This document shows positions 6,673 through 49,600 of a stretch of DNA of 50,631 nucleotides, one piece after another (positions within the stretch are counted from its first letter, which is position 1; each line of letters starts with the position of its first letter). The stretch lies in the IMG/VR virus record IMGVR_UViG_643348551_000005. One strand, given 5' to 3'. The notes beneath the pieces were generated by a model that had not been told where the DNA came from, made no database searches, and saw nothing but the letters and a program-made list of their open reading frames with translations. The position numbers and the translations under genes were made by a program. The DNA is from a virus (lineage: Duplodnaviria > Heunggongvirae > Uroviricota > Caudoviricetes).

Positions 6673-7161
6673 ATGTTGGATGTATTTACTCCATTGTTGA
6701 AACTTTTTGCTAACGAGCCACTCGAAAGACTTATGTATACGATTATCATTTTTGGTCTCACTCTCTGGCTGATACCGAAAGAGTTTACTGTCGCATTCAA
6801 TGCTTATACTGAAATACCTTGGCTCTTTCAGATTATCGTTTTTGCCTTTTCTTTCGTGGTCGCCATTTCCTTCTCAAGATTGCGAGCACATATTCAAAAG
6901 CATTATTCATTACTACCAGAGCAACGAGTATTGCTTCGTTTATCTGAGAAAGAAATCGCTGTATTTAAAGATTTCCTTAAAACAGGAAATCTTATTATCA
7001 CTTCTCCTTGCCGTAACCCGGTTATGAAAAAATTAGAACGGAAGGGCATCATTCAACATCAGAGTGATAGCGCAAACTGTTCTTATTATCTCGTCACCGA
7101 AAAATACTCCCATTTTATGAAGTTATTCTGGAACAGCAGGAGTAGACGTTTTAATCGTTAG
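6673..7161 (+). CDS. sieB: Superinfection exclusion protein B (SieB), membrane protein
   Basis: 162-aa product starting MLDVFTPLLKLF... with two hydrophobic helices, matching SieB. The track ORF begins upstream at 6550; the internal ATG was chosen to match the known N-terminus. Confidence 0.82.
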   Translation: MLDVFTPLLKLFANEPLERLMYTIIIFGLTLWLIPKEFTVAFNAYTEIPWLFQIIVFAFSFVVAISFSRLRAHIQKHYSLLPEQRVLLRLSEKEIAVFKDFLKTGNLIITSPCRNPVMKKLERKGIIQHQSDSANCSYYLVTEKYSHFMKLFWNSRSRRFNR

Positions 7162-7313
7162 CTTACTGTGTGCTTCTCCAACCATCGGCGCGCACCAGTT
7201 TCGGTTTTAAATGTTTTGCTTTTGGTATACGTCATGGCAGTGAACGTTCCATCCTGGTTGGGGAACACGCCGCACACCAGGGATTCGTTGTTGCCGAGGT
7301 CGATTTTTTGCAT
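7158..7313 (-). CDS. ydaF: Small protein YdaF-like (51 aa)
   Basis: Hand-translated minus-strand ORF MQKIDLGNNESLVCGVFPNQDGTFTAMTYTKSKTFKTETGARRWLEKHTVS. Position between sieB and ydaG as in Rac. Not in the supplied track (below 60 aa). Confidence 0.5.
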   Translation of the reverse strand: MQKIDLGNNESLVCGVFPNQDGTFTAMTYTKSKTFKTETGARRWLEKHTVS

Positions 7314-7323
7314 TTTGCGAATC

Positions 7324-7458
7324 TCACATCTTGTTGCTACGTATAGCGACTTCTGCCTGCCAGAGATCCCAGTCGTTGCTGCGTAAAGCCTGCACAGCCT
7401 GGTTGTAAGTGATACCGCAACAATCCATCAAATACTGAACTACTTCGTAATGCACCAT
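7324..7458 (-). CDS. ydaG: Small protein YdaG-like (44 aa)
   Basis: Hand-translated minus-strand ORF MVHYEVVQYLMDCCGITYNQAVQALRSNDWDLWQAEVAIRSNKM, matching my recollection of Rac YdaG. Confidence 0.55.
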   Translation of the reverse strand: MVHYEVVQYLMDCCGITYNQAVQALRSNDWDLWQAEVAIRSNKM

Positions 7459-7628
7459 CTTATCTATCCCCTTAACGCCGGGTGGCGGAACTAACTGCTG
7501 CACTGCAAAATTTGAATCCCGCCGTCATGTTCATACGCCTCGGGCTGGCTACTTAACCCCTGACCACTGCCTGGTAACTCGAAGTATTGCCCGGCGTTCT
7601 GTGGGGCGGGGTGGGTTGGCAGGTATAT

Positions 7629-7670
7629 AATGTACTTTGTGTTCATCATTGTAAAGTACTTTAAGTACAT
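7629..7670. promoter_or_regulatory. Putative operator/promoter region upstream of racR with repeated TGTACTT / AAGTAC motifs
   Basis: Seen in sequence: AATGTACTTTG at 7629-7638 and AAGTACTTTAAGTACAT at 7654-7670, including the palindrome AAGTACTT. Related ATGTACT motifs recur in the racR-ydaS intergenic region. Confidence 0.4.
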
Positions 7671-7745
7671 TTTATGTATAAAAAAATGAGACGGGATAAA
7701 GTGAAGCACAAACCCGGAGGGGGACGCTACCGGATTTATGCTGGT

Positions 7746-8165
7746 TTAAGAGGCTTTTTGTTTTTTCTTTCGTGCTAACTCTTCGTAAATTGCATTGTAC
7801 TTCTGTTTTTTCTCCTCAAGAGTTTTTAAAAGTTCATCTGTCTCACTGTCAGGGAGCTCGTCCAGAAGGTCAATGATGATTTTTTGTCTTGGATTTAACT
7901 CCTGATAGAAACGTATCTGTCCACTTTCTTCTGTATCCTCTCCCAAAAGATAGGTTGGTGTTGTTCCAATGAGTGTTGCTAATTCCCTTAATTTCTCTCG
8001 GCGAGGAATTGTTTCACCATTAAACCATTTGCTAACCGCTTTTGGTGTTAATTTCATTCGACGGGCAATTTCTGCCTGCCTTCCATGTTGTTCATAACCA
8101 GCGTTTTCACAGGCTAGCGCAAGCCTACTGGCGAACTCTTTACGCGCTTTATCTTCATGAACCAT
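7746..8165 (-). CDS. racR: Prophage repressor RacR (XRE-family HTH)
   Basis: 139-aa ORF with an N-terminal HTH (GRQAEIARRMKLTPKAVSKWFNGETIP). Divergent from a Cro-like gene, the classic immunity-region layout. Confidence 0.82.
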   Translation of the reverse strand: MVHEDKARKEFASRLALACENAGYEQHGRQAEIARRMKLTPKAVSKWFNGETIPRREKLRELATLIGTTPTYLLGEDTEESGQIRFYQELNPRQKIIIDLLDELPDSETDELLKTLEEKKQKYNAIYEELARKKKQKAS

Positions 8166-11718: not shown

Positions 11719-12008
11719 ATATTGGCATTTTATCAGTGAATCATGCTGCATTTATAGGTATTTTTAGTTTAAATAGCATTGGTTCATATGTAAATTGACA
11801 TTTTTATGGTACAGGGTAGAACTAGTGTGGTTGCCTGCTTTGTGCCAGCTGCGGACATTACTTAAACAAATGCTGTATTATTTTATCGGTAAAGGTGGTA
11901 AAGAGTGGCCCTGAAGTGTCAAGATAATTATTAGCAGTATATATCATGCAAGAACCCATTTAATTTAGGCATGAAATTAATTTTAAAAAAGTAGAGGATT
12001 CCAATTAT

Positions 12009-13691
12009 ATGGCCAAACAGTTTATGTTAATGGAACCAAAAAATGAGAACTTCAATGAATTAATTGGAGGGTCAAATAAGTACATTGTTCCTAGATTCCA
12101 GCGAGACTATGCTTGGGATGTAGAACAATGGGAGGACCTTTGGAGTGATGTTACAGCACTTGATGATGAAGGTTTTCATTATATGGGATATATAGTTCTT
12201 CAACAAAAAGAACAGTATCAACATGAGGTCATTGACGGTCAACAACGATTAGTAACCTTGTCGATTATAGTTCTAGCAGCCATGAAAGCCATTAAAAACT
12301 TGATAGATAAAGGAGAGGAGGTTGAACAAAACACAGAGCGACTTGATGCAATAACAAAGACATTTGTGGGTAACAAAAACTTCGTTTCATTAAAGGTGGT
12401 TAGCAAGCTAGATTTAAATAGAAATAATAAAAGATATTTTCAAAGCATCTGTTCAAACTTAGAAGCTCCTAATACTCGTGGAACTACATCTACAAATAAG
12501 CTACTCAAGAAATGCTTTGATTTTTTCCAAAAGAAGGAGTTCGGTAATACCGGCGCTGAGATCGCACAGTTTATTGCCGATTTTTCTTCGAGTATGGTTT
12601 TTACAAAAATAGTTGTTCAAGATGATTTAAATGCATACAAAGTATTTGAAACTTTAAATGCGAGAGGAGTCCAGTTATCCACGCCAGATCTCTTAAAAAA
12701 CTATTTGTTTTCGATAGTAACTAAGGATGAGAAAATCGGAGATGAGGAATTAGATGAGTTAGATGAGCAATGGTCGGAGATTATCGATCAGTTGGGAGAA
12801 AGCAATGTTTCTGATTACATTAGGTATCATCATAATTCTCATAGAAAAATGGTCACAAAAAATAATTTATACACTTCAATGAGAAAAGTAATTACAACCC
12901 CTAAAGAAGCATACGATTATTTAAGATCACTGATAAATTCCGCACCTATTTATGCATCATTGATTAACCCGAATGATTCATGGTGGGCAGAGCAAGATAC
13001 TAAATACAAGAAGGCCATTCATTATCTGAACGGCATTAGACTCTTTAATATTAGACAGCCATTAACAGTATTGCTATCAGCTTTTAATCAATTCAATCCA
13101 GATGAGTTCGTCAGCCTGACTCGTTATTTATATATTTTATCAATTAGATACAATGTTATTTGTCATTTATCACCAAGTGAACAAGAAAGCATGTATAATC
13201 AAATTGCGATTAAGATCTCCAATAAGGAATACAAGAGAGCTAGCAATGTGAAAAATGGGGAGGAGTTTAAGAGGTTATATCCTGATGATAACGTGTTCTT
13301 TAATGCTTTTGAATTTCATCGAATGCCAAGTAGACAAACAGCCAAAAAAATTAGATTTCTCTTGGCTGAAATTGAACAATATCTTGGTAATAATTGCGAT
13401 CATGAAAAAGTTACACTCGAACATATTTGTCCATTTAACCCAGAGAAGGGGTGGTGCAATTCGTTTGGGGAGGGGGTTAATGACGTAAAGGATAGGTTAG
13501 GAAATATGGTTTTGATGGATAAAGATAATCTAAAAAGAGCTTCATTTGAAGTGAAGAAAAATGAATATGGAAAATCAAAGTATAAATTAGCGGCTAAGAT
13601 TACACAGTATCCTGAATGGAATTTAGAGGCTGTCAATGATTTTCAAAAATGGATGTCGGAACAAGCAGTAAATGTATGGAAAGTTGGTTAA
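12009..13691 (+). CDS. DUF262/DUF1524 two-domain nuclease, GmrSD-like (putative Type IV modification-dependent restriction enzyme)
   Basis: 560-aa ORF. N-terminal ParB/Srx-like DUF262 signature (IVPRFQRDYAWDVEQWEDLW ... VIDGQQRLVTLSII). C-terminal His-Me-finger DUF1524-like region (TLEHICPFNPEKGW ... RLGNMVLMDKDNLKRA). Lies in a low-GC island with an AT-rich upstream region. Confidence 0.75.
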   Translation: MAKQFMLMEPKNENFNELIGGSNKYIVPRFQRDYAWDVEQWEDLWSDVTALDDEGFHYMGYIVLQQKEQYQHEVIDGQQRLVTLSIIVLAAMKAIKNLIDKGEEVEQNTERLDAITKTFVGNKNFVSLKVVSKLDLNRNNKRYFQSICSNLEAPNTRGTTSTNKLLKKCFDFFQKKEFGNTGAEIAQFIADFSSSMVFTKIVVQDDLNAYKVFETLNARGVQLSTPDLLKNYLFSIVTKDEKIGDEELDELDEQWSEIIDQLGESNVSDYIRYHHNSHRKMVTKNNLYTSMRKVITTPKEAYDYLRSLINSAPIYASLINPNDSWWAEQDTKYKKAIHYLNGIRLFNIRQPLTVLLSAFNQFNPDEFVSLTRYLYILSIRYNVICHLSPSEQESMYNQIAIKISNKEYKRASNVKNGEEFKRLYPDDNVFFNAFEFHRMPSRQTAKKIRFLLAEIEQYLGNNCDHEKVTLEHICPFNPEKGWCNSFGEGVNDVKDRLGNMVLMDKDNLKRASFEVKKNEYGKSKYKLAAKITQYPEWNLEAVNDFQKWMSEQAVNVWKVG

Positions 13692-13815
13692 TCTATCAAT
13701 AAAACATAGGCGTAAGTGGGATGTTTTACTGACAGTTTGATGAGTCATGGATATCCTGCTAGGCCTACAACATGTCTTCAATTATATCATTACGAGATAG
13801 GCTCGATATTAACAA

Positions 13816-13839
13816 GTCCGCTCCTCGCTCAAAGCGGAC
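13816..13839. repeat. 24-nt motif GTCCGCTCCTCGCTCAAAGCGGAC (7-bp inverted repeat, 10-nt loop); copy 1
   Basis: Seen in sequence. Perfect stem GTCCGCT/AGCGGAC followed by CTTTCTTTTGC. A 20/24 direct-repeat copy lies at 15341-15364 on the other side of the 349-aa gene. Confidence 0.5.
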
Positions 13840-14218
13840 CTTTCTTTTGCATCTACCTTTTACTTTTCCCCTTTCTTCCGTATCTACTTTTCCCATGTAT
13901 ACGATTAATCCCCCCAGATACGACTTTAGCATTTTTCAGCTCTGCCGAGAAGAAAAAGGCGTGATTGTCAAAATTTAACGAAAACAAGCAGATTGTTGCG
14001 GATGGCGATTTTTTGTTTTCTTGGATGAAAAATGTGCATATTTTTGCTAAAAGTGGTTAAATATGTCTAACGGCGAATTAGCGACGAAGCGATACTCAGA
14101 TTTTCAACCAGAACGTTCGTCTGGCCTTAGATAGAATGGACATTTTTGGATCCACTTTGTCCACGGAGGGCCATATAAGTGCCAACGTTTTAAAAAAGCT
14201 ACTCAGGAGTATTTATAA

Positions 14219-15268
14219 ATGGGATTTATTTCACAACTATTCAATTTGCTTACCTCCAGGATAACTTCTGCAAAAACAATGACGCCTTCAAGTTTGCATG
14301 AGTTAACAGCTAACATAACTCCTAAACTCAAGAAACAAAACGGAAATATATCAATCGAAAACGATTGGCTTACTATTGATTCTCCTTATTTTTTTGGACA
14401 GGCGTATCTGTCTGCAAACAAACATTGGGTTGTAGGCTGTAGTGACTTTGATGGCAATGGAAGGGGAGGGCACCGGGAAAGTGGATTTGGAACAGTTGTT
14501 TTAGTTAATAAACCAACTTTTCGTATCCTTCATAAGCTCAGAACTATTGCCCGACCATTTAATGCTGCTGTCGCTGACACAGGTGATTATATTGTTCATG
14601 ACGCTGGATTTGGTTCTGCGCTGCAAGCTGATTTGATTGCTATTGATGTTGAAGGAAATGAAAAGTTTAGACGTCATTATGAAGCAAATATCTATAATAT
14701 CGGAATTTCTCATTGTGGTAAATACGCATCGGTTCAGACAGCCGCAGCGCCCGGTAAAGATGGAAATATCCTTGAGGTAATAAATCTGTGGTCAAAAACA
14801 ACAATATTTTCCATTAAACCTGAGTATGGATGGGCTGATAGTTATTTCTTCGATCTCGATGAAAATGGGGGGCTAAGATCGCTGAAAGTGAAATGCAAAA
14901 ATATTGGATACTTCAGATACACTGCCATCGGTATTCCCATTGACGTGGAAGCGTATAAAGATGCTTGTCTATATAAAGGAAATTTCAACCTTAAAGTAGA
15001 GGCCGCGAGAGCGCTTTTAAGAGAACATCCCAGTGAGAAGAATGCTCAAAAAGCATTGAAAGCAATTGAAATGGCTCTTAATGAAGGAGCGAAAGACCGA
15101 ACTGACTGGGCTGCAGCCGCATTTCGCATCAAAGGTGAAGCAAATGATTTACTTGGTAACTTTAGTGATGCTCTTGATGCCTATGAAAAAGCTTTGAGCT
15201 TTAATCCAAAAATAGGGGTTCAGAGACGAGTTAATGCTCTGCGTAAAAAATTACAGAGATTAAAATAA
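14219..15268 (+). CDS. Hypothetical protein (349 aa) with C-terminal TPR-like helical repeats; function unknown
   Basis: ATG with an SD (AGGAG) upstream. Low-GC codon usage like the neighbouring GmrSD-like gene. The C-terminal roughly 90 aa are helical-repeat-like (KALKAIEMALNEGAKDRTDWAAAAFRIKGEANDLLGNFSDALDAYEKALSFNP). No signal peptide and no catalytic motif that I can recognise. Confidence 0.6.
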   Translation: MGFISQLFNLLTSRITSAKTMTPSSLHELTANITPKLKKQNGNISIENDWLTIDSPYFFGQAYLSANKHWVVGCSDFDGNGRGGHRESGFGTVVLVNKPTFRILHKLRTIARPFNAAVADTGDYIVHDAGFGSALQADLIAIDVEGNEKFRRHYEANIYNIGISHCGKYASVQTAAAPGKDGNILEVINLWSKTTIFSIKPEYGWADSYFFDLDENGGLRSLKVKCKNIGYFRYTAIGIPIDVEAYKDACLYKGNFNLKVEAARALLREHPSEKNAQKALKAIEMALNEGAKDRTDWAAAAFRIKGEANDLLGNFSDALDAYEKALSFNPKIGVQRRVNALRKKLQRLK

Positions 15269-15340
15269 AACCAGCAAGTATCACGATAGAGAAATTTTTT
15301 CGGAACTACCTGTAGTGATTATGTTTCTATATACACCAAA

Positions 15341-15364
15341 GTTAGCTCCTCGTTCAAAGCAGAC
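15341..15364. repeat. Degenerate second copy (GTTAGCTCCTCGTTCAAAGCAGAC) of the 13816-13839 motif
   Basis: 20 of 24 positions identical to copy 1, same orientation, about 1.5 kb away. Together the two copies bracket the 349-aa gene. Confidence 0.45.
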
Positions 15365-15542
15365 TAGATGTTGGCTTCCGTCGGACTTGGCGTATTTAAA
15401 GAAGTGCTGGTAGTGACTGGTTGTTGTATTCCATTTCTACAGAACAAAATCACAGAAACTATACCCAATAGTTGTATTGAATCACTGACGAGACAGCCTC
15501 ATATTTATCAGGGCAGGTGCACGTCTAATACAGGAGGTTGTC

Positions 15543-15632
15543 GTGCTGGTTCTCAAGTGTGCGTTGGCTATTGCGGCTGTGGTGGCAATTTATTGTCTTG
15601 CTATTGTTCTTATGGATCGCCTTTCTGATTGA
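15543..15632 (+). CDS. Candidate small hydrophobic peptide (29 aa, GTG start)
   Basis: AGGAGG SD at 15532-15537, 5 nt before GTG. Hand translation VLVLKCALAIAAVVAIYCLAIVLMDRLSD gives one transmembrane-like helix plus a charged tail. No homology claimed. Confidence 0.3.
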   Translation: MLVLKCALAIAAVVAIYCLAIVLMDRLSD

Positions 15633-15752
15633 TTTCATATTGGCGAAGTAAAGGGGGTTAAATAGTATGGCTGCGGGGGCTTGAGGCTATCTGCCTTGGG
15701 CATGAAAACCAAAGGCAGATAGAAAAAGTCCCAGTTGATATTACTGTAGTGG

Positions 15753-17063
<1,311 letters not shown>

Positions 17064-20034: not shown

Positions 20035-20463
20035 ATGGGTTTTCGTAGCGCATCAATTCTTACGTTGATTATTAGTGGGATTATTATCGGGTGCACTGAT
20101 GCTGTATCGACAAATTATCATGACCGTACATCATATTACTCCGATAAAGCAATAGAGACACAGTATGTGAGTTCATCTGAACGTACTTCTGATGTTAGTG
20201 AGGATATCCGTCTGTATGCCCATCAAATCAAGAGCGCCATCGAAAAACAGTTCGGGGATGCGAGTAAGTATTCAGGAAAAGAGTGTACACTGAGAATGCA
20301 TATGGCCCCGAATGGCCTTCTACTGGAGGTTAAAAGAGAAAGTGGAGACCTCGATTTATGTCGTGAAGCGATGAATGCGATAAAGAATGCTGATATACCT
20401 GCCCCCCCTTCGCCGGAAGTATATAAAGTATTTCAAAATGGGGTGCTGGATTTTAAACCCTGA
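20035..20463 (+). CDS. Lipoprotein with a C-terminal TolA-domain-III-like domain (paralog 1)
   Basis: SD (GAGGA) upstream. Signal peptide with lipobox (IIIGC). The C-terminal roughly 75 aa (YAHQIKSAIEKQFGDASKYSGKECTLRMHMAPNGLLLEVKRESGDLDLCREAMNAIKNADIPAPPSPEVYKVFQNGVLDFKP) closely resemble the C-terminal domain III of E. coli TolA as I remember it (...YAGQIKSAIESKFYDASSYAGKTCTLRIKLAPDGMLLDIKPEGG...YEVFKNAPLDFKP). Confidence 0.7.
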   Translation: MGFRSASILTLIISGIIIGCTDAVSTNYHDRTSYYSDKAIETQYVSSSERTSDVSEDIRLYAHQIKSAIEKQFGDASKYSGKECTLRMHMAPNGLLLEVKRESGDLDLCREAMNAIKNADIPAPPSPEVYKVFQNGVLDFKP

Positions 20464-20613: not shown

Positions 20614-21009
20614 GTGGGATTAAAGAAAATCGTTATGTTGACTTTTTGGGTCGGTTTTGTTGCGGGATGCACACCTTTACACCCTTCAGATTGCCACAAA
20701 ACTACTGCTACAGGTAGTTGCAGTTCAGGACGCTGGGATGATCAGGATGAATGGGGGGCGCAAGCGCGGGGAATCAGAGCTGCAATTAATGCCAAACTTG
20801 ATGAGCCGCATAACTGGAAAGGGAAAAAATGCAGGTTGCATATGGAATTCTCTCAGGATGGCACGGCGTTAAAAATATCTACCAGTAACGGTGATAAAGC
20901 CTATTGCGAAGCGATAAAGTCCGCAGCTCATAAAGCCAAATTTCCGGCCTTCAACAATCCGGAAGTCTACAGAGATTTTCAGAAATCTGGCTTTGACATG
21001 CGAGGTTAG
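20614..21009 (+). CDS. Lipoprotein with a C-terminal TolA-domain-III-like domain (paralog 2, GTG start)
   Basis: SD (GAGGAG) 6 nt upstream of GTG. Signal peptide with lipobox (VAGC). C-terminal region (GKKCRLHMEFSQDGTALKISTSNGDKAYCEAIKSAAHKAKFPAFNNPEVYRDFQKSGFDMRG) is a diverged copy of the same TolA-III-like fold, with the two cysteines conserved. Confidence 0.65.
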   Translation: MGLKKIVMLTFWVGFVAGCTPLHPSDCHKTTATGSCSSGRWDDQDEWGAQARGIRAAINAKLDEPHNWKGKKCRLHMEFSQDGTALKISTSNGDKAYCEAIKSAAHKAKFPAFNNPEVYRDFQKSGFDMRG

Positions 21010-40370: not shown

Positions 40371-41068
40371 TGCAGGACATACAACAGGAAACGCTGAATG
40401 AATGCATTCGTGCGGAGCAGTCGGCCAGCGTGGTGCTCTGGGAAATCGACCTGACCGAGGTAGGCGGGGATCGCTACTTTTTCTGTAATGAGCAGAACGA
40501 AAAAGGTGAGTCTGTCACCTGGCAGAGTCGGCAGTATCAGGCCTATCCCATTCAGGGGAGTGGATTTGAGATGAACGGCAAGGGCAGTGCTGCCCGTCCG
40601 ACACTGACGGTCTCTAACCTGCACGGCATGATCACCGGGATGGCGGAAGATCTGCAGAGTCTGGTCGGCGGAACGGTGGTCCGGCGTAAGGTTTACGCCC
40701 GCTTTCTGGATGCGGTGAACTTCGTCAACGGAAACAGCGAAGCCGATCCGGAGCAGGAGGTGATCAGCCGCTGGCGCATCGAGCAGTGCAGCGAACTGAG
40801 CGCGGTCAGTGCCTCTTTTGTACTGTCCACGCCGACTGAAACGGATGGCGCTGTTTTTCCGGGACGTATCATGCTGGCCAACACCTGCACCTGGACCTAT
40901 CGCGGCGATGAGTGCGGTTATAGCGGTCCGGCGGTCGCGGATGAATATGACCAGCCGACGTCCGATATCACGAAGGATAAATGCAGCAAATGCCTGAGTG
41001 GCTGTAAGTTTCGCAATAATGTCGGCAACTTTGGCAGCTTCCTTTCCATTAACAAACTTTCGCAGTAA
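40370..41068 (+). CDS. Minor tail protein L (lambda gpL-like)
   Basis: 232-aa product [33 protein letters not shown]... recognised as near-identical to lambda gpL, with a C-terminal Cys cluster. Confidence 0.9.
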   Translation: MQDIQQETLNECIRAEQSASVVLWEIDLTEVGGDRYFFCNEQNEKGESVTWQSRQYQAYPIQGSGFEMNGKGSAARPTLTVSNLHGMITGMAEDLQSLVGGTVVRRKVYARFLDAVNFVNGNSEADPEQEVISRWRIEQCSELSAVSASFVLSTPTETDGAVFPGRIMLANTCTWTYRGDECGYSGPAVADEYDQPTSDITKDKCSKCLSGCKFRNNVGNFGSFLSINKLSQ

Positions 41069-41073
41069 ATCCC

Positions 41074-41817
41074 ATGACAGAGACAGAATCAGCGATTCTG
41101 GCGCACGCCCGGCGATGTGCGCCAGCGGAGTCGTGCGGCTTCGTGGTGAGAACGCCGGAGGAGGAAAGATATTTTCCCTGCGTGAATATCTCCGGTGAGC
41201 CGGAGGCGTATTTCCGGATGTCGCCGGAGGACTGGCTGAGTGCAGAAATGCAGGGAGAGATTGTGGCGCTGGTCCACAGCCACCCCGGTGGTCTGCCCTG
41301 GCTGAGTGAGGCCGACCGGCGGCTGCAGGTACAGAGTGATTTGCCGTGGTGGCTGGTCTGCCGGGGGGCGATTCATAAATTCCGCTGTGTGCCGCATCTC
41401 ACCGGGCGGCGCTTTGAGCACGGGGTAACGGACTGTTACACGCTGTTCCGGGACGCTTACCATCTGGCGGGAATTGAGATGCCGGATTTTCATCGCGGGG
41501 ATGACTGGTGGCGTAACGGTCAGAATCTCTATCTGGATAATCTGGAGGCCACAGGGCTGTATCAGGTGCCGTTGTCAGCGGCGCAGCCGGGCGATGTGCT
41601 GCTGTGCTGTTTTGGTTCATCGGTGCCGAATCATGCCGCCATTTACTGTGGTGACAGCGAGCTGCTGCACCATATTCCTGAACAACTGAGCAAACGAGAG
41701 AGGTACACCGACAAATGGCAGCGACGCACACACTCCCTCTGGCGTCACCGGGCATGGCACGCATCTGCCTTTACGGGGATTTACAACGATTTGGCCGCCG
41801 CATCGACCTTCGAGTGA
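41074..41817 (+). CDS. Tail assembly protein K (lambda gpK-like; JAB/MPN plus NlpC/P60 domains)
   Basis: HSHPGG motif (JAB/MPN-like) and a C-terminal Cys/His region, in the lambda K position. Confidence 0.85.
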   Translation: MTETESAILAHARRCAPAESCGFVVRTPEEERYFPCVNISGEPEAYFRMSPEDWLSAEMQGEIVALVHSHPGGLPWLSEADRRLQVQSDLPWWLVCRGAIHKFRCVPHLTGRRFEHGVTDCYTLFRDAYHLAGIEMPDFHRGDDWWRNGQNLYLDNLEATGLYQVPLSAAQPGDVLLCCFGSSVPNHAAIYCGDSELLHHIPEQLSKRERYTDKWQRRTHSLWRHRAWHASAFTGIYNDLAAASTFE

Positions 41818-42356
41818 AAACGGGGTCCGAAGCCATCCGGGCGCTGGCCATGCAGATCCCGGCATTTCGTCAGAAACTGAGCGACGGCTGGTACCAGGTA
41901 CGCATTGCCGGGCGTGATGCAGGTGAAACCGAATTGTCTGCCCGTCTTAATGAGCCGCTGGAAAATGGTGCCGTGATCCATATCGTGCCGCGTCTGGCAG
42001 GAGCCAAAAGTGGCGGTGTGTTTCAGGCTGTGCTGGGGGCGGCTGTTATGGCGGTTGCTATATGGATGCCGGGGGTAGGAATTATGGCGAGTAATCTGCT
42101 GTTTTCTCTCGGTGCCAGTATGACGCTTGGCGGTGTTGCACAGATGCTGGCCCCTAAACCCAAAACCCCCCGCACACAGACAACGGATAACGGCAAACAG
42201 AATACCTATTTTTCTTCACTGGATAACATGGTTGCCCAGGGCAATGTTCTGCCTGTTCTGTACGGGGAAATGCGCGTGGGGTCACGCGTGGTTTCTCAGG
42301 AGATCAGCACGGCAGACGAAGGGGACGGTGGTCAGGTTGTGGTGATTGGTCGCTGA
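41715..42356 (+). CDS. Tail assembly protein I (lambda gpI-like)
   Basis: Overlaps the 3' end of K as in lambda; the C-terminal ...NGKQNTYFSSLDNMVAQGNVLPVLYGEMRVG... matches lambda gpI from memory. Confidence 0.8.
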   Translation: MAATHTLPLASPGMARICLYGDLQRFGRRIDLRVKTGSEAIRALAMQIPAFRQKLSDGWYQVRIAGRDAGETELSARLNEPLENGAVIHIVPRLAGAKSGGVFQAVLGAAVMAVAIWMPGVGIMASNLLFSLGASMTLGGVAQMLAPKPKTPRTQTTDNGKQNTYFSSLDNMVAQGNVLPVLYGEMRVGSRVVSQEISTADEGDGGQVVVIGR

Positions 42357-42416
42357 TGCAAAATGTTTTATGTGAAACCGCCTGCGGGCGGTTTTGTCAT
42401 TTATGGAGCGTGAGGA

Positions 42417-45400
42417 ATGGGTAAAGGAAGCAGTAAGGGGCATACCCCGCGCGAAGCGAAGGACAACCTGAAGTCCACGCAGTTGCTGAGTGTGATCGAT
42501 GCCATCAGCGAAGGGCCGGTTGAAGGTCCGGTGGATGGATTAAAAAGCGTGCTGCTGAACAGTACGCCGGTGCTGGACACTGAGGGGAATACCAACATCT
42601 CCGGTGTCACGGTGGTGTTCCGTGCCGGTGAGCAGGAGCAGACACCGCCGGAGGGGTTTGAATCCTCCGGCTCCGAGACGGTGCTGGGTACGGAAGTGAA
42701 ATATGACACGCCGATCACCCGCACCATTACGTCTGCAAACATCGACCGTCTGCGCTTTACCTTCGGTGTGCAGGCACTGGTGGAAACCACCTCAAAGGGG
42801 GACCGGAATCCATCGGAAGTCCGCCTGCTGGTTCAGATACAACGTAACGGTGGCTGGGTGACGGAAAAGGACATCACCATTAAGGGCAAAACCACCTCGC
42901 AGTATCTGGCCTCGGTGGTGGTGGATAACCTGCCGCCGCGCCCGTTCAGTATCCGGATGCGCAGAATGACGCCGGACAGCACCACAGACCAGTTGCAGAA
43001 CAAAACGCTCTGGTCGTCATACACCGAAATTATCGATGTGAAACAGGGCTACCCGAACACGGCACTGGTCGGCGTACAGGTGGATTCGGAGCAGTTCGGC
43101 AGCCAGCAGGTGAGCCGTAATTATCATCTTCGCGGGCGCATTCTGCAGGTGCCGTCGAACTATAACCCGCAGACGCGACAATACAGCGGTATCTGGGACG
43201 GAACGTTAAAACCAGCATACAGCAACAACATGGCCTGGTGTCTGTGGGATATGCTGACCCACCCGCGCTACGGCATGGGAAAACGTCTTGGTGCGGCGGA
43301 TGTGGACAAATGGGCGCTGTATGTCATCGGCCAGTACTGCGACCAGTCAGTGCCGGACGGCTTTGGCGGCACGGAGCCGCGCATCACCTGTAATGCGTAC
43401 CTGACCACACAGCGCAAGGCGTGGGATGTGCTCAGTGATTTCTGCTCGGCGATGCGCTGTATGCCGGTATGGAACGGGCAGACGCTGACGTTCGTGCAGG
43501 ACCGACCGTCGGATAAGGTGTGGGCCTATAACCGCAGTAATGTAGTGATGCCGGATGATGGCGCGCCGTTCCGCTACAGTTTCAGCGCCCTGAAAGACCG
43601 CCATAATGCCGTTGAGGTGAACTGGATTGACCCGGATAACGGCTGGGAGACGGCGACAGAGCTTGTTGAAGATACGCAGGCCATTGCCCGTTACGGTCGT
43701 AACGTCACGAAGATGGATGCCTTTGGCTGTACCAGCCGGGGGCAGGCGCACCGCGCCGGGCTGTGGCTGATTAAAACGGAACTGCTGGAAACGCAGACCG
43801 TGGACTTCAGCGTGGGTGCGGAAGGGCTTCGCCATGTACCGGGGGATGTCATTGAAATCTGCGATGATGACTATGCGGGTATCAGCACCGGCGGGCGCGT
43901 GCTGGCGGTGAACAGCCAGACCCGGACGCTGACGCTCGACCGTGAAATCACGCTGCCATCCTCCGGTACCACGCTGATAAGCCTGGTTGACGGTCAGGGT
44001 AATCCGGTCAGCGTGGAGGTCCAGTCCGTCACCGACGGCGTGAAGGTGAAAGTGAGCCGTGTTCCTGACGGCGTTGCAGAATACAGCGTGTGGGGGCTGA
44101 AGCTGCCGACGCTGCGCCAGCGCCTGTTCCGCTGCGTGAGTATCCGTGAGAACGACGACGGCACGTATGCCATCACCGCCGTGCAGCATGTACCGGAAAA
44201 AGAAGCCATCGTGGATAACGGGGCGCACTTTGACGGCGACCAGAGCGGCACGGTGAATGGTGTCACGCCGCCAGCGGTGCAGCATCTGACCGCAGAAGTC
44301 ACCGCAGACAGCGGGGAATACCAGGTGCTGGCGCGCTGGGACACGCCGAAGGTGGTGAAGGGCGTGAGCTTCCTGCTTCGCCTGACCGTGGCAGCGGATG
44401 ACGGCCGTGAGCGGCTGGTCAGCACGGCCCGGACGACGGAAACCACTTACCGCTTCACACAACTGGCTCTGGGGAACTACAGGCTGACAGTCCGAGCAGT
44501 AAATGCGTGGGGGCAGCAGGGCGATCCGGCGTCGGTATCGTTCCGGATTGCCGCACCGGCAGCGCCGTCGCGGATTGAGCTGACGCCGGGCTATTTTCAG
44601 ATAACCGCCACGCCGCATCTTGCGGTTTATGACCCGACGGTACAGTTTGAGTTCTGGTTCTCGGAAAAACGGATTGCGGATATCAGGCAGGTTGAAACCA
44701 GCGCGCGTTATCTTGGTACGGCACTGTACTGGATAGCCGCCAGTATCAATATCAAACCGGGCCATGATTATTATTTTTACGTTCGCAGTGTGAACACCGT
44801 TGGCAAATCGGCATTCGTGGAGGCTGTCGGTCAGCCGAGTGATGATGCATCAGGCTATCTGGATTTTTTCAAAGGCGAGATAGGGAAAACCCATCTGGCT
44901 CAGGAGCTGTGGACGCAGATTGATAACGGTCAGCTTGCGCCTGACCTGACTGAAATCAGGACGTCCATAACGGATGTCAGCAATGAAATAACACAGACCG
45001 TCAATAAGAAACTGGAAGACCAGAGTGCAGCGATCCAGCAGATACAGAAGGTTCAGGTTGATACAAATAATAACCTGAACAGCATGTGGGCAGTGAAGCT
45101 GCAGCAGATGCAGGACGGACGCCTTTATATTGCGGGTATCGGTGCCGGTATTGAGAACACCCCTGACGGCATGCAGAGTCAGGTGCTGCTGGCAGCAGAC
45201 AGGATTGCGATGATTAATCCTGCGAATGGCAACACAAAGCCGATGTTTGTTGGTCAGGGCGATCAGATATTCATGAATGAAGTGTTCCTGAAACGCCTGA
45301 CGGCCCCCACCATTACCAGCGGCGGTAATCCTCCGGCATTTTCCCTGACATCAGACGGGAGACTGACGGCGAAAAATGCGGATATCAGTGGCAGTGTGAA

Positions 45401-45914
45401 TGCGAACTCAGGAACGCTCAACAATGTCACGATTAACCAGAACTGTACGATTAAGGGCATGCTGGAGGCGACCCAGGTCAGAGGAGATTTCGTTAAAGCT
45501 GTATCAAAAGCCTTCCCGAAAAAAGTCGGTACGTGGGGTAACACGGAAACACCAAACGGTACGGTTACAGTCACCATCAGCGATGATCATAACTTTGACC
45601 GCCAGATTATTATTCCGCCCATTATTTTTAACGGTATAGCGTATGACGATCCGGGGAGCGGAAATAACCCAGGAGGCACGCGATACACGGGTTATGGTTT
45701 TGAAGTTCGCAAAAACGGCGTATTAATCGCATCCAGAGAAACTAAAGGGGCCATTCCCGGTAGTTACAGTGCAGTTATTGATATGCCGAGTGGCAGGGGA
45801 AGCGTCACTCTGGAGTTTAAGATTTTCCAGAAAGGCAATCAGGGGGCAGGCAATATCACCGACTGTACGGTGATTGTGACCAAAAAAGCCGCTTCCGGCA
45901 TCAGTATTCGTTGA
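42417..45914 (+). CDS. Host-specificity / central tail fibre protein J (lambda gpJ-like)
   Basis: 1165-aa ORF in the J position, with fibronectin-III-like repeats and a C-terminal receptor-binding region. Confidence 0.9.
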
Positions 45915-45936
45915 AATATTTATAACCCCAATAAAG

Positions 45937-45961
45937 GGCGTCAGGAATGACGCCTTTTTTA
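45937..45961 (+). terminator. Intrinsic terminator after J (GGCGTCA-GGAA-TGACGCC + TTTTTTA)
   Basis: Perfect 7-bp stem, tetraloop and T-tract, 23 nt after the J stop. Confidence 0.75.
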
Positions 45962-45984
45962 TTGCAGAAAAGCGAGAGGTAATT

Positions 45985-46584
45985 ATGCGTAAAGTTTGTG
46001 CAGCAATTTTGTCCGCAGCCATTTGTCTGGCCGTATCCGGTGCGCCTGCATGGGCGTCTGAACATCAGTCCACGCTGAGCGCGGGGTATCTTCATGCCTC
46101 GACGAACGTCCCCGGCAGTGATGATCTGAACGGGATTAACGTGAAATACCGTTATGAGTTTACGGACACACTGGGGCTGGTGACGTCATTCAGCTATGCA
46201 GGAGACAAGAATCGCCAGCTGACCCGTTACAGCGATACCCGCTGGCATGAAGATTCCGTTCGTAACCGCTGGTTCAGCGTAATGGCGGGGCCGTCTGTGC
46301 GCGTGAATGAATGGTTCAGCGCGTATGCGATGGCGGGTGTGGCTTACAGCCGTGTGTCGACTTTCTCCGGGGATTATCTCCGCGTAACTGACAACAAGGG
46401 GAAAAAGCACGATGTGCTGACCGGAAGTGATGACGGTCGCCACAGCAACACGTCTCTGGCGTGGGGGGCTGGCGTGCAGTTTAACCCGACCGAATCCGTG
46501 GCCATTGATATTGCTTATGAAGGCTCCGGCAGTGGTGACTGGCGCACTGACGGTTTCATCGTTGGTGTCGGTTATAAATTCTGA
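45985..46584 (+). CDS. lom: Lom-like outer-membrane beta-barrel protein (Ail/Lom family)
   Basis: Signal peptide (MRKVCAAILSAAICLAVSGAPAWA) and sequence near-identical to lambda Lom from memory, ending in the beta-barrel terminus GVGYKF. Confidence 0.9.
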   Translation: MRKVCAAILSAAICLAVSGAPAWASEHQSTLSAGYLHASTNVPGSDDLNGINVKYRYEFTDTLGLVTSFSYAGDKNRQLTRYSDTRWHEDSVRNRWFSVMAGPSVRVNEWFSAYAMAGVAYSRVSTFSGDYLRVTDNKGKKHDVLTGSDDGRHSNTSLAWGAGVQFNPTESVAIDIAYEGSGSGDWRTDGFIVGVGYKF

Positions 46585-46610
46585 TTAGCCAGGTAACACA
46601 GTGTTATGAC

Positions 46611-46638
46611 AGCCCGCCGGTTCAGGCGGGCTTTTTTG
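46611..46638 (+). terminator. Intrinsic terminator after lom (AGCCCGCC-GGTTCA-GGCGGGCT + TTTTTT)
   Basis: Perfect 8-bp GC-rich inverted repeat followed by a T-tract. Confidence 0.75.
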
Positions 46639-46648
46639 TGGGGGGAAT

Positions 46649-49600
46649 ATGGCAGTACGGATTTCAGGTGTACTGAAAGATGGCGCAGGTAAGCCGATAC
46701 AAAACTGCACCATTCAGCTAAAGGCCAGGCGCAACAGCACCACGGTGGTGGTGAACACAGTGGCCTCAGAAAACCCGGATGAAGCCGGGCGTTACACAAT
46801 GGACGTCGAGTATGGTCAGTACAGCGTCAGTCTGTTGGTGGAGGGATTCCCGCCGTCACACGCCGGGATTATCACCGTATATGAGGACTCAAAGCCGGGC
46901 ACACTGAATGATTTCCTCGGTGCAATGACGGAGGATGATGTCCGGCCAGAGGCACTGCGCCGTTTTGAACTGATGGTGGAAGAGGTGGCGCGTAACGCGT
47001 CCGCAGTGGCACAGAACACGGCAGCCGCGAAGAAGTCAGCCGGCGATGCCGGCACATCTGCCCGTGAGGCGGCAACCCATGCGACTGATGCTGCAGGCTC
47101 AGCACGCGCAGCCAGCACGTCAGCCGGACAGGCCGCTTCGTCGGCTCAGTCAGCGTCTTCCAGCGCAGGAACGGCATCAGCAAAGGCCACTGAAGCATCA
47201 AAAAGTGCTGCCGCTGCAGAGTCCTCAAAAAGCGCGGCGGCCACCAGTGCCGCTGCGGCAAAAACGTCAGAAACGAATGCGGCAGCGTCACAACAATCAG
47301 CAGCCACTTCAGCATCCACCGCGACCACGAAAGCGTCAGAAGCTGCCACCTCAGCCCGGGATGCGTCGGCTTCAAAAGAGGCAGCGAAATCATCAGAAAC
47401 GAACGCATCATCAAGCGCCAGTAGTGCCGCTTCCTCGGCAACGGCGGCAGGCAATTCCGCGAAGGCGGCAAAGACGTCTGAGACAAACGCCAGGTCTTCT
47501 GAAACGGCAGCGGGACAGAGCGCCTCGGCTGCGGCAGGCTCAAAAACAGCGGCTGCGTCGTCTGCCAGTGCCGCGTCAACAAGTGCCGGGCAGGCCTCAG
47601 CCAGTGCCACCGCCGCCGGAAAATCGGCAGAAAGTGCTGCATCGTCCGCTTCAACAGCCACAACGAAGGCTGGCGAAGCCGCTGTACAGGCCAGCGCAGC
47701 AGCGAGGTCTGCTTCCGCAGCGAAGACATCCGAAACGAATGCGAAAGCGTCGGAAACCCGTGCAGAATCCTCAAAAACGGCAGCCGCATCGTCCGCCAGT
47801 TCGGCAGCGTCATCGGCATCATCTGCGTCTGCTTCAAAAGATGAGGCGACCAGACAGGCGTCAGCAGCGAAGGGCAGCGCCACGACGGCATCCACGAAAG
47901 CAACAGAGGCGGCAGGCAGTGCGACGGCGGCATCTCAGAGCAAAACTACTGCTGAATCCGCTGCGACCCGTGCGGAAGCTGCTGCTGATCGTGCTGAAGA
48001 GATTGCCGGTGCAGTTGCGATGGAAGACGCAAGCCTTACAACTAAAGGTGTTGTGAAACTTAGCAGTGCTGTTGATAGCACCAGTGAATCGCTGGCGGCA
48101 ACGCCAAAGGCAGTAAAATCAGCCTATGACAATGCAGAGAAACGTCTGCAGAAAGACCAGAACGGCGCTGATATACCCGATAAGGGACGCTTCCTGAACA
48201 ACATTAACGCGGTCAGTAAAACAGACTTTGCTGATAAGCGTGGTATGCGTTATGTGCGGGTTAACGCTCCTGCAGGTGCAACATCTGGAAAATATTACCC
48301 TGTTGTTGTTATGCGTTCTGCTGGCTCAGTAAGCGAACTGGCATCAAGGGTCATTATCACCACGGCAACGCGAACCGCAGGCGATCCGATGAATAACTGC
48401 GAGTTTAACGGATTTGTTATGCCTGGTGGCTGGACTGACAGGGGGCGTTATGCTTATGGAATGTTCTGGCAATATCAAAACAATGAACGAGCCATCCACT
48501 CAATAATGATGAGTAATAAGGGCGATGATTTGCGCTCTGTGTTCTATGTTGATGGCGCTGCTTTCCCTGTTTTTGCGTTTATCGAAGATGGCCTGTCAAT
48601 ATCCGCACCTGGTGCTGATCTCGTTGTTAATGATACGACCTATAAGTTTGGGGCAACAAATCCGGCGACTGAATGTATCGCGGCGGACGTTATCCTTGAT
48701 TTTAAGAGTGGGCGTGGTTTTTATGAGTCTCATTCGTTAATCGTTAACGATAACTTGTCGTGCAAAAAACTTTTTGCCACAGACGAAATTGTAGCGCGTG
48801 GTGGTAATCAGATTCGAATGATAGGTGGGGAGTATGGGGCATTATGGCGTAATGATGGCGCTAAAACTTACCTGCTGCTTACCAATCAAGGTGATGTTTA
48901 TGGTGGCTGGAATACATTAAGACCGTTTGCTATTGATAACGCAACCGGCGAACTGGTTATTGGAACCAAACTGTCCGCAAGTCTGAACGGTAATGCATTA
49001 ACAGCAACAAAGCTGCAAACGCCAAGACGGGTTTCTGGTGTTGAGTTTGATGGTTCCAAAGATATTACTTTAACCGCCGCGCATGTGGCTGCTTTTGCCA
49101 GAAGGGCAACGGATACATATGCCGATGCGGATGGTGGCGTTCCCTGGAATGCCGAATCAGGCGCTTACAATGTCACCCGCTCTGGCGACAGCTATATTCT
49201 GGTTAACTTCTATACCGGAGTCGGAAGTTGCCGGACCCTGCAGATGAAGGCGCATTACAGAAATGGTGGTCTGTTCTACCGTTCTTCAAGAGATGGCTAT
49301 GGTTTTGAGGAAGACTGGGCAGAAGTTTATACCTCGAAAAATCTTCCACCAGAAAGCTACCCAGTCGGCGCACCAATCCCGTGGCCATCAGATACCGTTC
49401 CGTCTGGTTATGCCCTGATGCAGGGGCAGACTTTTGACAAATCTGCCTACCCGAAACTTGCTGCCGCTTATCCGTCAGGCGTGATCCCTGATTTGCGTGG
49501 CTGGACGATTAAGGGCAAGCCCGCCAGTGGTCGTGCCGTATTGTCTCAGGAACAGGACGGCATAAAATCGCATACCCACAGCGCCAGCGCATCCAGTACG

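Follow-up and report, generated by a model that had tools for sequence, protein, structure and literature searches.

A seven-bladed propeller fused to an Mrr-family nuclease is a validated defense protein (Vassallo et al. 2022). HEC-06, a Type IV restriction enzyme of the GmrSD type, has been shown by experiment to defend as a single protein and to need its EHICP nuclease motif for that defense. The gene described here stands next to a HEC-06-type gene and encodes a protein that combines a propeller-like domain with tetratricopeptide repeats (TPRs); it lies in a 50,631-nucleotide stretch of viral DNA (Caudoviricetes; IMG/VR record IMGVR_UViG_643348551_000005), called the window below, whose sequence identifies it as a Rac-type prophage integrated beside ttcA in Escherichia coli. 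This propeller-TPR gene (14219..15268, + strand, like the other features of the gene and its cassette) starts with ATG, encodes 349 amino acids (aa), and is found both in the program-made list of open reading frames (ORFs) and in RefSeq as WP_000505828.1, which the annotation of strain LD91-1 names 'tetratricopeptide repeat protein'. We propose that it is a self-contained mobile cassette for a membrane-held protein-interaction scaffold, which would be a stand-alone candidate protein of anti-phage or inter-element conflict, and we give this proposal an even chance of being right. The protein would be a cytoplasmic scaffold at the inner membrane, made up of an N-terminal amphipathic helix, a flexible linker of ∼30 residues, an arc of about four blades, three TPR-like repeats, and a basic end motif, and its propeller-TPR body would serve as a recognition or adaptor module. 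In E. coli, it would bind a phage or host component, perhaps as an oligomer, and then trap or block that component at the membrane, much like a superinfection-exclusion or abortive-infection protein; we propose binding followed by trapping or blocking because the protein has no enzymatic domain and its gene travels alone. In relatives, the same module would be connected with a variety of effectors, some fused to it (VRR-NUC, DEDDh exonuclease-BRCT) and others encoded close by (helicase-nucleases, AbiEii, papain-like DUF2026).

We modeled the window protein with AlphaFold2 from 21 aligned homologs, which gave a mean predicted local distance difference test score (pLDDT) of 86.8 and a predicted template modeling score (pTM) of 0.79. 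The model contains a short helix at residues 4 to 12, within a stretch of pLDDT <50 (residues 1–39), followed by 17 beta strands within residues 44 to 235, arranged as four four-stranded sheets plus one extra strand, and by six helices within residues 243 to 348. Ahead of the strands is a low-complexity, poorly conserved linker (residues 14–43; 14258..14347), delimited by its pLDDT and by a minimum in the family alignment. The strands make up a predicted all-beta domain of about four propeller blades (residues 44–236; 14348..14926), and the helices would form about three TPR-like repeats (residues 237–349; 14927..15265) with the conserved motif NPKIGVQRR...LRKKL at the end. The preliminary description of this gene had expected a beta-rich N-terminal two-thirds and a TPR-like tail, both of which the model bears out; its characterization of the former as Gly/Asp-rich proved weak, with Gly making up 9.3% of residues 1 to 236 and Asp falling outside the eight commonest residues there.

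Fold comparison returned generic propellers and TPRs only. The Pfam TPR_1 match at residues 301 to 331 of the window protein is just below threshold (25.7 versus 27.8 bits), and 88 to 91 of 137 relatives have a TPR_1 or TPR_2 match at E≤1e-3; the protein belongs to the TPR clan, defined by tandem 34-residue helix-turn-helix repeats detectable by TPR profiles, through its last third only. The six to eight blades and the WD40-, PQQ-, or NHL-type sequence repeats that define WD40 and closed beta-propellers were not found in the window protein, which also gave no match to Pfam WD40. Because four contiguous blades superpose on seven-bladed rings, the modeled beta domain is probably an open arc of about four blades and not a closed four-bladed ring. 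No covering model for the N-terminal two-thirds was found in Pfam, PADLOC, PHROGs, or NCBIfam.

The proposed membrane tether is an amphipathic helix predicted for residues 1 to 13 (MGFISQLFNLLTS; 14219..14257) from the AlphaFold2 helix, its hydrophobic moment, and its conservation. Across 137 diverse members, the first ten residues (MGFISQLFNL) carry 1.62 bits as compared with 0.34 to 0.43 in the linker, and the motif MG(F/L)(I/F)SKLxxL recurs family-wide with a hydrophobic moment of 0.45 to 0.51. In 12 of 174 near-full-length relatives, a transmembrane helix replaces this N-terminal motif, and in the examples read, Lys or Arg follows that helix directly (e.g., MTWLIIISIVAILLYLLLRDQNNKSSKR); under the positive-inside rule, the propeller-TPR body would then be cytoplasmic. 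The window protein itself has neither a signal peptide nor a transmembrane helix. We infer that family members are anchored to the inner membrane on its cytoplasmic side; some would use a transmembrane helix and most an amphipathic helix joined to a flexible linker. A secreted or periplasmic protein resembling YfgM, BamB, or TolB was rejected given the lack of a signal peptide, the basic residues after the relatives' transmembrane helices, and the fused nucleases, which imply a cytoplasmic location. Membership of the YfgM family, a label found in some RefSeq annotations, was rejected as well; there was no match to the NCBIfam YfgM model, and the implied cytoplasmic body differs from the periplasmic TPR-like domain of YfgM.

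Three of the 137 relatives scanned carry a nuclease domain, each time C-terminal to the module. One (P0122) consists of a transmembrane segment, the module, and VRR-NUC (3.1e-12), a second (P0179) of the module and VRR-NUC (2.8e-7), and the third (P0138) of the module, an RNase_T/DEDDh exonuclease, and BRCT. The exonuclease part of the last (residues 377–550) matches the PADLOC candidate PDC-S48 (1.8e-32), which is the sole PADLOC match among the 137 relatives.

We also examined the genes around relatives of the module, scanning as one pool the 130 proteins encoded within two genes of 36 genomic homologs, so that not every hit is assigned to a locus. The pool contained superfamily 1 (SF1) helicases matching Mokosh MkoA/MkoC and PDC-S37 (four to five proteins), SAVED-nuclease CBASS effectors (three), CapP/RmrA-type M78 peptidases (three to four), HipA (three), ResIII helicases (three), Hhe (two), DUF6035 (two), and AbiEii. 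Four of these proteins have PDC-S37 matches at E = 0; from their common cluster and Pfam domains, we assign them to the helicases of loci L012, L014, L016, and L020, which are SF1 helicases of 1,061 to 1,562 aa with AAA_11/AAA_12 domains, encoded on the same strand directly upstream of the homolog. The helicase ORF ends 5 to 24 bp before the longest homolog ORF in L012, L016, and L020 and 55 bp before the tblastn match in L014. An MTES_1575 restriction-endonuclease domain is present in two neighbors, one of them the L020 helicase. A 1,100-aa ResIII helicase takes the same upstream position in L025 and L026, and these arrangements, like the preceding four, may be operons pairing the module with helicase-nucleases. 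At L030, a CD-NTase (3.8e-221 to PDB 7ljn) adjoins the homolog, and its cluster-mates occupy the same position in L024 and L032. Overall, a known or candidate defense gene was found within two genes of the homolog at at least 12 of the 36 loci: PDC-S37/Mokosh-like genes at L012, L014, L016, and L020; ResIII and/or HipA at L025, L026, and L036; CBASS genes at L024, L030, and L032 (L033 has an unannotated member of the same neighbor cluster); and AbiEii at L002.

Further examples come from loci that were annotated individually. On a Sphingobium plasmid, CapP/helix-turn-helix, CD-NTase, phospholipase, and AbiEi/AbiEii genes lie with a homolog that overlaps the AbiEii stop codon, all between IS21 copies. 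An integrase-bounded island holds a Gp49/HI1420 toxin-antitoxin pair, DUF2026, the homolog, a type III CBASS (SAVED, AAA, HORMA, SMODS), CapH/CapP, and Mrr-ResIII. In Serratia, the homolog stands between a 2,138-aa protein with a faint NACHT match and an Mrr_cat protein; at an Achromobacter locus, AbiEii and Endonuclease_NS lie ∼3 kb away; and in a prophage-like region of Pandoraea, a Panacea-domain gene lies two genes upstream, at ∼0.3 kb. The family lives in defense-rich variable regions, and its association would be with defense islands and with no particular system. The search for a conserved partner gene gave none: in an all-against-all clustering of neighbors from 37 loci, the best neighbor cluster occurred in five loci only. 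No same-strand neighbor lies within 40 bp at 19 of 34 loci, and the remaining 15 involve at least 11 different partner clusters.

Another neighbor is a DUF2026 gene, found 79 to 93 bp upstream on the same strand at four loci of one close subclade (L006, 9283..9918; L064, 6271..6909; L068, 6260..6907; L069, 2863..3510). DUF2026 is a papain-like fold family whose own neighborhoods include restriction endonucleases and PIWI-like proteins, and DUF2026 together with the homolog may be a two-gene variant of the system. As a general partner it was rejected, being confined to those four loci, and tblastn of the window found no remnant of it.

The propeller-TPR gene moves as a single-gene cassette. By blastn, 14163..15364 is common to the window and a relative whose protein is 88% identical (L044; 89% nucleotide identity), and 14188..15365 is common to the window and a Pectobacterium relative whose protein is 81% identical (L043; 85%), giving a mobile unit of ∼1.2 kb (14163..15364). 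On the 5' side, the cassette includes only 31 to 56 bp common to the window and these relatives. Within it is the gene's own Shine-Dalgarno sequence, already noted in the preliminary description (AGGAG, 14205..14209, 9 nt 5' of the ATG), where AAAAAGCTACTCAGGAGTATTTA is invariant in both relatives. At the 3' end is a 26-nt element (AAGTTAGCTCCTCGTTCAAAGCAGAC; 15339..15364), found as a direct repeat (D2), and homology with L043 and L044 stops at its end to within one base; related hairpin versions occur at the same place in both relatives. The second copy in the window (13814..13839, + strand; 22 of 26 positions identical) lies 123 nt 3' of the GmrSD stop and has the form of a terminator-like hairpin followed by a T-rich run, with a GTCCGCT/AGCGGAC stem (−10.5 kcal/mol, z −2.5), and a terminator scan picks 13825..13837 within it. 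Zero matches to the element are expected by chance, and it could be either a shared terminator or a recombination scar. We also note that the element (AAGTYNGCTCCTCGYTCAAAGCRGAC) stands 3' of both cargo genes, GmrSD and propeller-TPR, in the prophage slot. An Rfam scan matched only isrC, which is insertion sequence (IS)-associated and near the cassette, and nothing inside the cassette.

The surroundings of the cassette differ between carriers, which include prophages, plasmids, and integrase islands, and the homologs have no conserved chromosomal location. The Pectobacterium copy is at the end of an AlpA/DUF6387/H-NS island, and the 88%-identical copy is beside phage Arc/Bro/Ant genes. In the window, the gene is flanked by replication genes (ydaU, ydaV, DUF1627, DUF977) and by DUF1367, DUF1364, and DUF1133 (Q-like) genes. 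A Morganella morganii copy (L046/L047, gene 7001..8020; 46% identity; 171 collection blocks) occupies the same slot of a lambdoid prophage, between replication genes and DUF1367/antiterminator Q, in the order replication genes, Dam, Lar, homolog, DUF1367, DUF968, antiterminator Q; intergenic distances there are 157 and 208 bp. The slot in the E. coli Rac-type and Morganella prophages suggests a cargo hotspot common to lambdoid prophages of different genera. On a Pantoea plasmid, ∼4.4 kb containing umuC and several small genes separate the homolog from an antiterminator-holin-lysozyme block downstream of it.

The preliminary description had called the protein an orphan, which did not survive searching. 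A word-indexed search found 44 full-length homolog clusters (clustered at 90% identity) from genera including Pectobacterium, Serratia, Morganella, Aeromonas, Burkholderia, Pandoraea, Achromobacter, and Variovorax, and the nonidentical clusters were 37 to 88% identical. An exhaustive profile search raised this to 291 representative clusters at E≤1e-30 and 1,051 at E≤1e-10, nearly all of them 300 to 350 aa long with an end-to-end match and mostly from Pseudomonadota. A scan of one genome per species gave 38 loci, mainly in Beta-, Gamma-, and Alphaproteobacteria with a few metagenome bins of other phyla. Carriage is patchy: 30 of 5,426 complete E. coli genomes have the gene, tblastn of 50,697 deposited phage genomes found no homolog of the protein, and 2.9 million viral contigs contained a homolog at 12 loci, three of which are 100% identical to the window gene. 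Copies are disrupted at 6 of 37 loci, which is what accessory cargo would show.

The gene is under purifying selection, with a ratio of nonsynonymous to synonymous substitution rates (dN/dS) of 0.27 relative to the 88%-identical relative and 0.24 relative to the 81%-identical relative (range 0.24–0.28); because of these values and the full-length homologs, we regard the ORF as a real gene and not a chance ORF. Among close relatives, the beta domain is most constrained (dN/dS 0.12–0.15) and the TPR region least (0.41–0.86), from small counts. The family alignment peaks over blades 2 to 4 (residues 111–190; 1.9–2.8 bits per ten-residue block) and over the last TPR with its NPKIGVQRR motif (residues 321–340; 2.4–2.6 bits), consistent with a core activity or partner that is conserved and a helical surface that changes faster. 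Conserved residues include R112/P113, Q173/T174, D181/N183, W205, and the K331/G333/V334 motif.

We favor a conflict or defense role because of the membrane-proximal scaffold, the single-gene mobility, the defense-rich surroundings, and the nuclease fusions, and because of the patchy distribution with its disrupted copies, the absence from the 50,697 phage genomes, and the rarity in viral contigs. Several observations weigh against it. No enzymatic or effector domain was recognized in the window protein, which makes the executing step speculative, and the membrane tether is inferred from sequence features alone. Nuclease fusions are rare among the relatives, and PADLOC left the propeller-TPR module unmatched in all 137 of them. 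In our literature search, there was no published mention of WP_000505828 or PDC-S37 and no report of phage defense by the protein. A consensus scan of the 380 bp 5' of the gene (13840..14218) found no sigma-70-like promoter. At roughly half of the loci, the neighbors have no recognized defense role; some copies are lone insertions among housekeeping or metabolic genes, and others neighbor an autotransporter, a DUF11 surface protein, or a histidine kinase. The only comparison set for the pooled counts, made up of genes at least five positions away in the same loci, holds JetD, LmuA, a 2TM CBASS effector, and methyltransferases; since the distant genes in these loci also include defense genes, the signal is one of life in islands and not of specific linkage. 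Finally, the Morganella homolog follows the anti-restriction genes Dam and Lar.

Database searches with the window protein gave little else. PADLOC-DB v2.0.0 had 0 families at E≤1, NCBIfam nothing apart from MamA at E = 0.064, and PHROGs only weak matches to the helical tail, such as the terminase small subunit phrog_74 (E = 0.0026, residues 287–347). WP_000505828 was not found in the parts of the DefensePredictor supplements that were searched, and the domain-centric discovery paper mentions neither TPR nor propellers. The preliminary description had suggested an independent defense gene; its independence of GmrSD and its defense-island neighbors stood up, whereas no PADLOC match and no published report of phage defense were there to support the rest. 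Neither housekeeping nor phage-structural homology was found.

A more far-reaching version of the conflict reading is possible, although we hold it to be doubtful. Here, the module would be a widespread and hitherto unrecognized immune recognition domain on the cytoplasmic face of the inner membrane that works without a nucleoside triphosphatase (NTPase) switch; alone, it would keep phages out by trapping a component at the site of DNA entry or replication. In relatives, it would be the sensor that guides toward incoming DNA the effectors fused to it or encoded nearby (VRR-NUC, DEDDh exonuclease, SF1/SF2 helicase-nucleases, AbiEii, papain-like DUF2026).

Alternatively, the gene could be mobile cargo with no role in phage conflict, encoding a membrane-associated scaffold with effects on the physiology of the host (envelope, stress, or signaling) and lying in variable regions by chance. 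TPR and propeller scaffolds have many housekeeping roles, and the several loci where the homolog has no defense gene nearby and sits among metabolic or housekeeping genes, or beside the autotransporter, DUF11, and histidine kinase genes, would suit such cargo. The 'YfgM family protein' name in some automated annotations would suit it too, but no NCBIfam model, YfgM included, passes E = 0.06. We consider it unlikely, since known defense genes recur in the immediate neighborhood, relatives are fused to nucleases, and the gene, which is distributed patchily by horizontal transfer, keeps no fixed place in chromosomes and is carried by only 30 of 5,426 E. coli genomes.

A counter-defense role, or some other fitness benefit to the mobile element, is in our judgment rather improbable. 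The protein would be an inhibitor, a decoy, or a regulator of neighboring toxic systems, for which a repeat scaffold with no enzymatic domain is what one would expect, but 349 aa is large for an anti-defense protein, and C-terminal nuclease fusions and versions with a transmembrane anchor are more in keeping with effector-bearing immune proteins than with inhibitors. The gene is carried by prophages, plasmids, and integrative islands, and its Morganella homolog comes directly after Dam and Lar in the early region of the prophage; however, its absence from the 50,697 phage genomes, with 12 loci in 2.9 million viral contigs, argues against a phage counter-defense or structural role. Counter-defense genes also cluster in islands, so the island context would agree with this alternative as well, but the family is common in chromosomal islands beside CBASS, AbiE, and Mokosh-like genes.

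The adjacent gene (12009..13691, + strand), which lies outside the cassette, encodes the GmrSD-type Type IV restriction enzyme, identified by Pfam (GmrSD_N, 1.7e-37; GmrSD_C, 1.9e-17) and by PADLOC (HEC-06, 4.3e-221), and its translated ORF contains the EHICP motif. Its low GC content (0.343) is common to the propeller-TPR gene (0.39) and the island of 11719..15734 (0.371), as compared with 0.472 for the whole window, and 527 bp separate its stop (13691) from the propeller-TPR ORF; both the GC content and the distance are as the preliminary description gave them. The propeller-TPR protein could be an accessory, sensor, or regulatory subunit of this enzyme, the two forming a two-gene system. 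They are adjacent on the same strand of the same low-GC island, the same 26-nt element lies 3' of each, relatives of the module adjoin or are fused with other nucleases, and of 5,426 complete E. coli genomes, the 30 that have one gene also have the other, always on the chromosome. Since identity among these 30 is at least 99%, they represent one clonal island, and the co-occurrence is not independent evidence. In 4 of the 30, GmrSD is split, truncated, or interrupted by IS1, whereas the propeller-TPR gene is annotated as intact among the 25 genomes listed, and the 527-bp separation contains the terminator-like hairpin.

Beyond E. coli, no GmrSD gene was found beside a homolog at the loci examined (Pectobacterium, including L043, as well as Morganella, Aeromonas, Achromobacter, Pandoraea, Burkholderia, Serratia, and several metagenomic contigs), nor at L044 within an upstream flank of only 161 bp, and no GmrSD domain is among the 25 commonest families of the 130 pooled neighbors. 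The co-occurrence with DUF262/DUF1524 genes across genomes, which the preliminary description had put forward as a check, was found as linkage in the clonal E. coli island only. The propeller-TPR gene is independent of its GmrSD neighbor, since the cassette common with the 81 to 88%-identical relatives excludes GmrSD. A two-gene system was therefore rejected as very unlikely, with linkage confined to one clonal island and HEC-06 active alone. A phage structural or packaging role was dismissed because the PHROGs matches are weak and limited to the helical tail and no phage genome has a homolog. The N terminus of the window protein is Ser/Thr-rich and acid-poor; a type III secretion effector was likewise dismissed, given the family's presence in many lineages, the transmembrane anchors or nuclease fusions of some relatives, and the lack of an effector locus.

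Some features of the prophage around the cassette were noted in passing. The window is 99.99 to 100% identical to strain LD91-1 except for a single IS-associated deletion, in which ∼1.5 kb (a Hok/Gef toxin gene and an IS4 pseudogene) is gone beside an IS3-family element; the upstream region of hok (15401..15744) is retained. The IS3-family insertion sequence itself (15735..17012) has 36-nt imperfect inverted repeats at its ends and contains the Rfam isrC match (16812..16934, − strand). The spacer between GmrSD and the propeller-TPR gene contains two overlapping small ORFs (13716..13978; 82 aa from a GTG start, 68 aa from an ATG start) that are outside the conserved cassette, unannotated in LD91-1, and probably noncoding remnants. 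Two further prophage ORFs (20035..20463 and 20614..21009) bear RefSeq names of TolA or TolA C-terminal-domain proteins, one with a lipoprotein-like N terminus (LTFWVGFVAGC) and the other with a Cys after a hydrophobic stretch, and may be entry-blocking (exclusion) proteins of the prophage. A compositionally distinct block near the right end (41001..48000) has a GC content of 0.56 to 0.62 relative to 0.47 for the window, and its last part (47001..48000) has an AT skew of 0.349.

If the defense role is true, an effector-less, probably membrane-tethered family of repeat scaffolds would join the bacterial immune repertoire. It would come with a single-gene E. coli model for how a nonenzymatic scaffold stops infection and for what a propeller-TPR sensor recognizes, and its recurrent pairing with different effectors would be useful for studies of immune-module shuffling. 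Should the module prove to be a recognition domain, bacteria would have a new modular family of pattern-recognition proteins that does not belong to the STAND superfamily. If there is no phage phenotype, the gene is still a well-defined single-gene cassette that moves between the same slot of different lambdoid prophages. Because hundreds of diverged clusters from Pseudomonadota and some other phyla are absent from Pfam, PADLOC, PHROGs, and NCBIfam, defense-annotation pipelines miss the family.

Among described systems, the Avs/STAND NTPases, with their TPR or WD40 sensors, and the propeller-nuclease system are likewise built on a TPR or propeller scaffold as the presumed recognition surface; they, too, are modular with varied effectors, nucleases especially, and occur in defense islands and prophages. 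The window protein differs from them in having no NTPase/STAND or effector domain, in having only about four blades, in its predicted N-terminal membrane-targeting element, and in the absence of a PADLOC sequence match. Its likeness to WD40/PROPPIN propellers (Atg18, Atg21, WIPI) and to CTPR2/3 is at the level of the fold only, with 7 to 19% identity and about four of seven blades matched, and the likeness to PDC-S48 is limited to the DEDDh exonuclease of P0138 (residues 377–550), a domain that the window protein does not have.

The exclusion and abortive-infection morons of lambdoid phages are another point of comparison. SieB, RexAB, and HK97 gp15-type proteins are small integral membrane proteins. 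The propeller-TPR gene resembles them as one accessory gene in a variable early-region slot of a lambdoid prophage, nonessential to the phage and with a product predicted to be membrane-associated; there is no similarity of sequence or fold, however, and the window protein is a predicted 349-aa soluble scaffold with a short amphipathic anchor, from a family that is common outside prophages. With HEC-06/GmrSD, the gene has in common the low-GC cargo island, the 26-nt 3' element, and its co-occurrence in E. coli, but the protein is unrelated and the linkage is absent outside the clonal island. We regard the propeller-TPR proteins as candidate immune scaffolds of mobile elements that form a family not described before. 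As candidates they are well supported, though one of many such, and they are set apart by an effector-less and apparently membrane-tethered architecture and by the shared element at the 3' end of the cassette.

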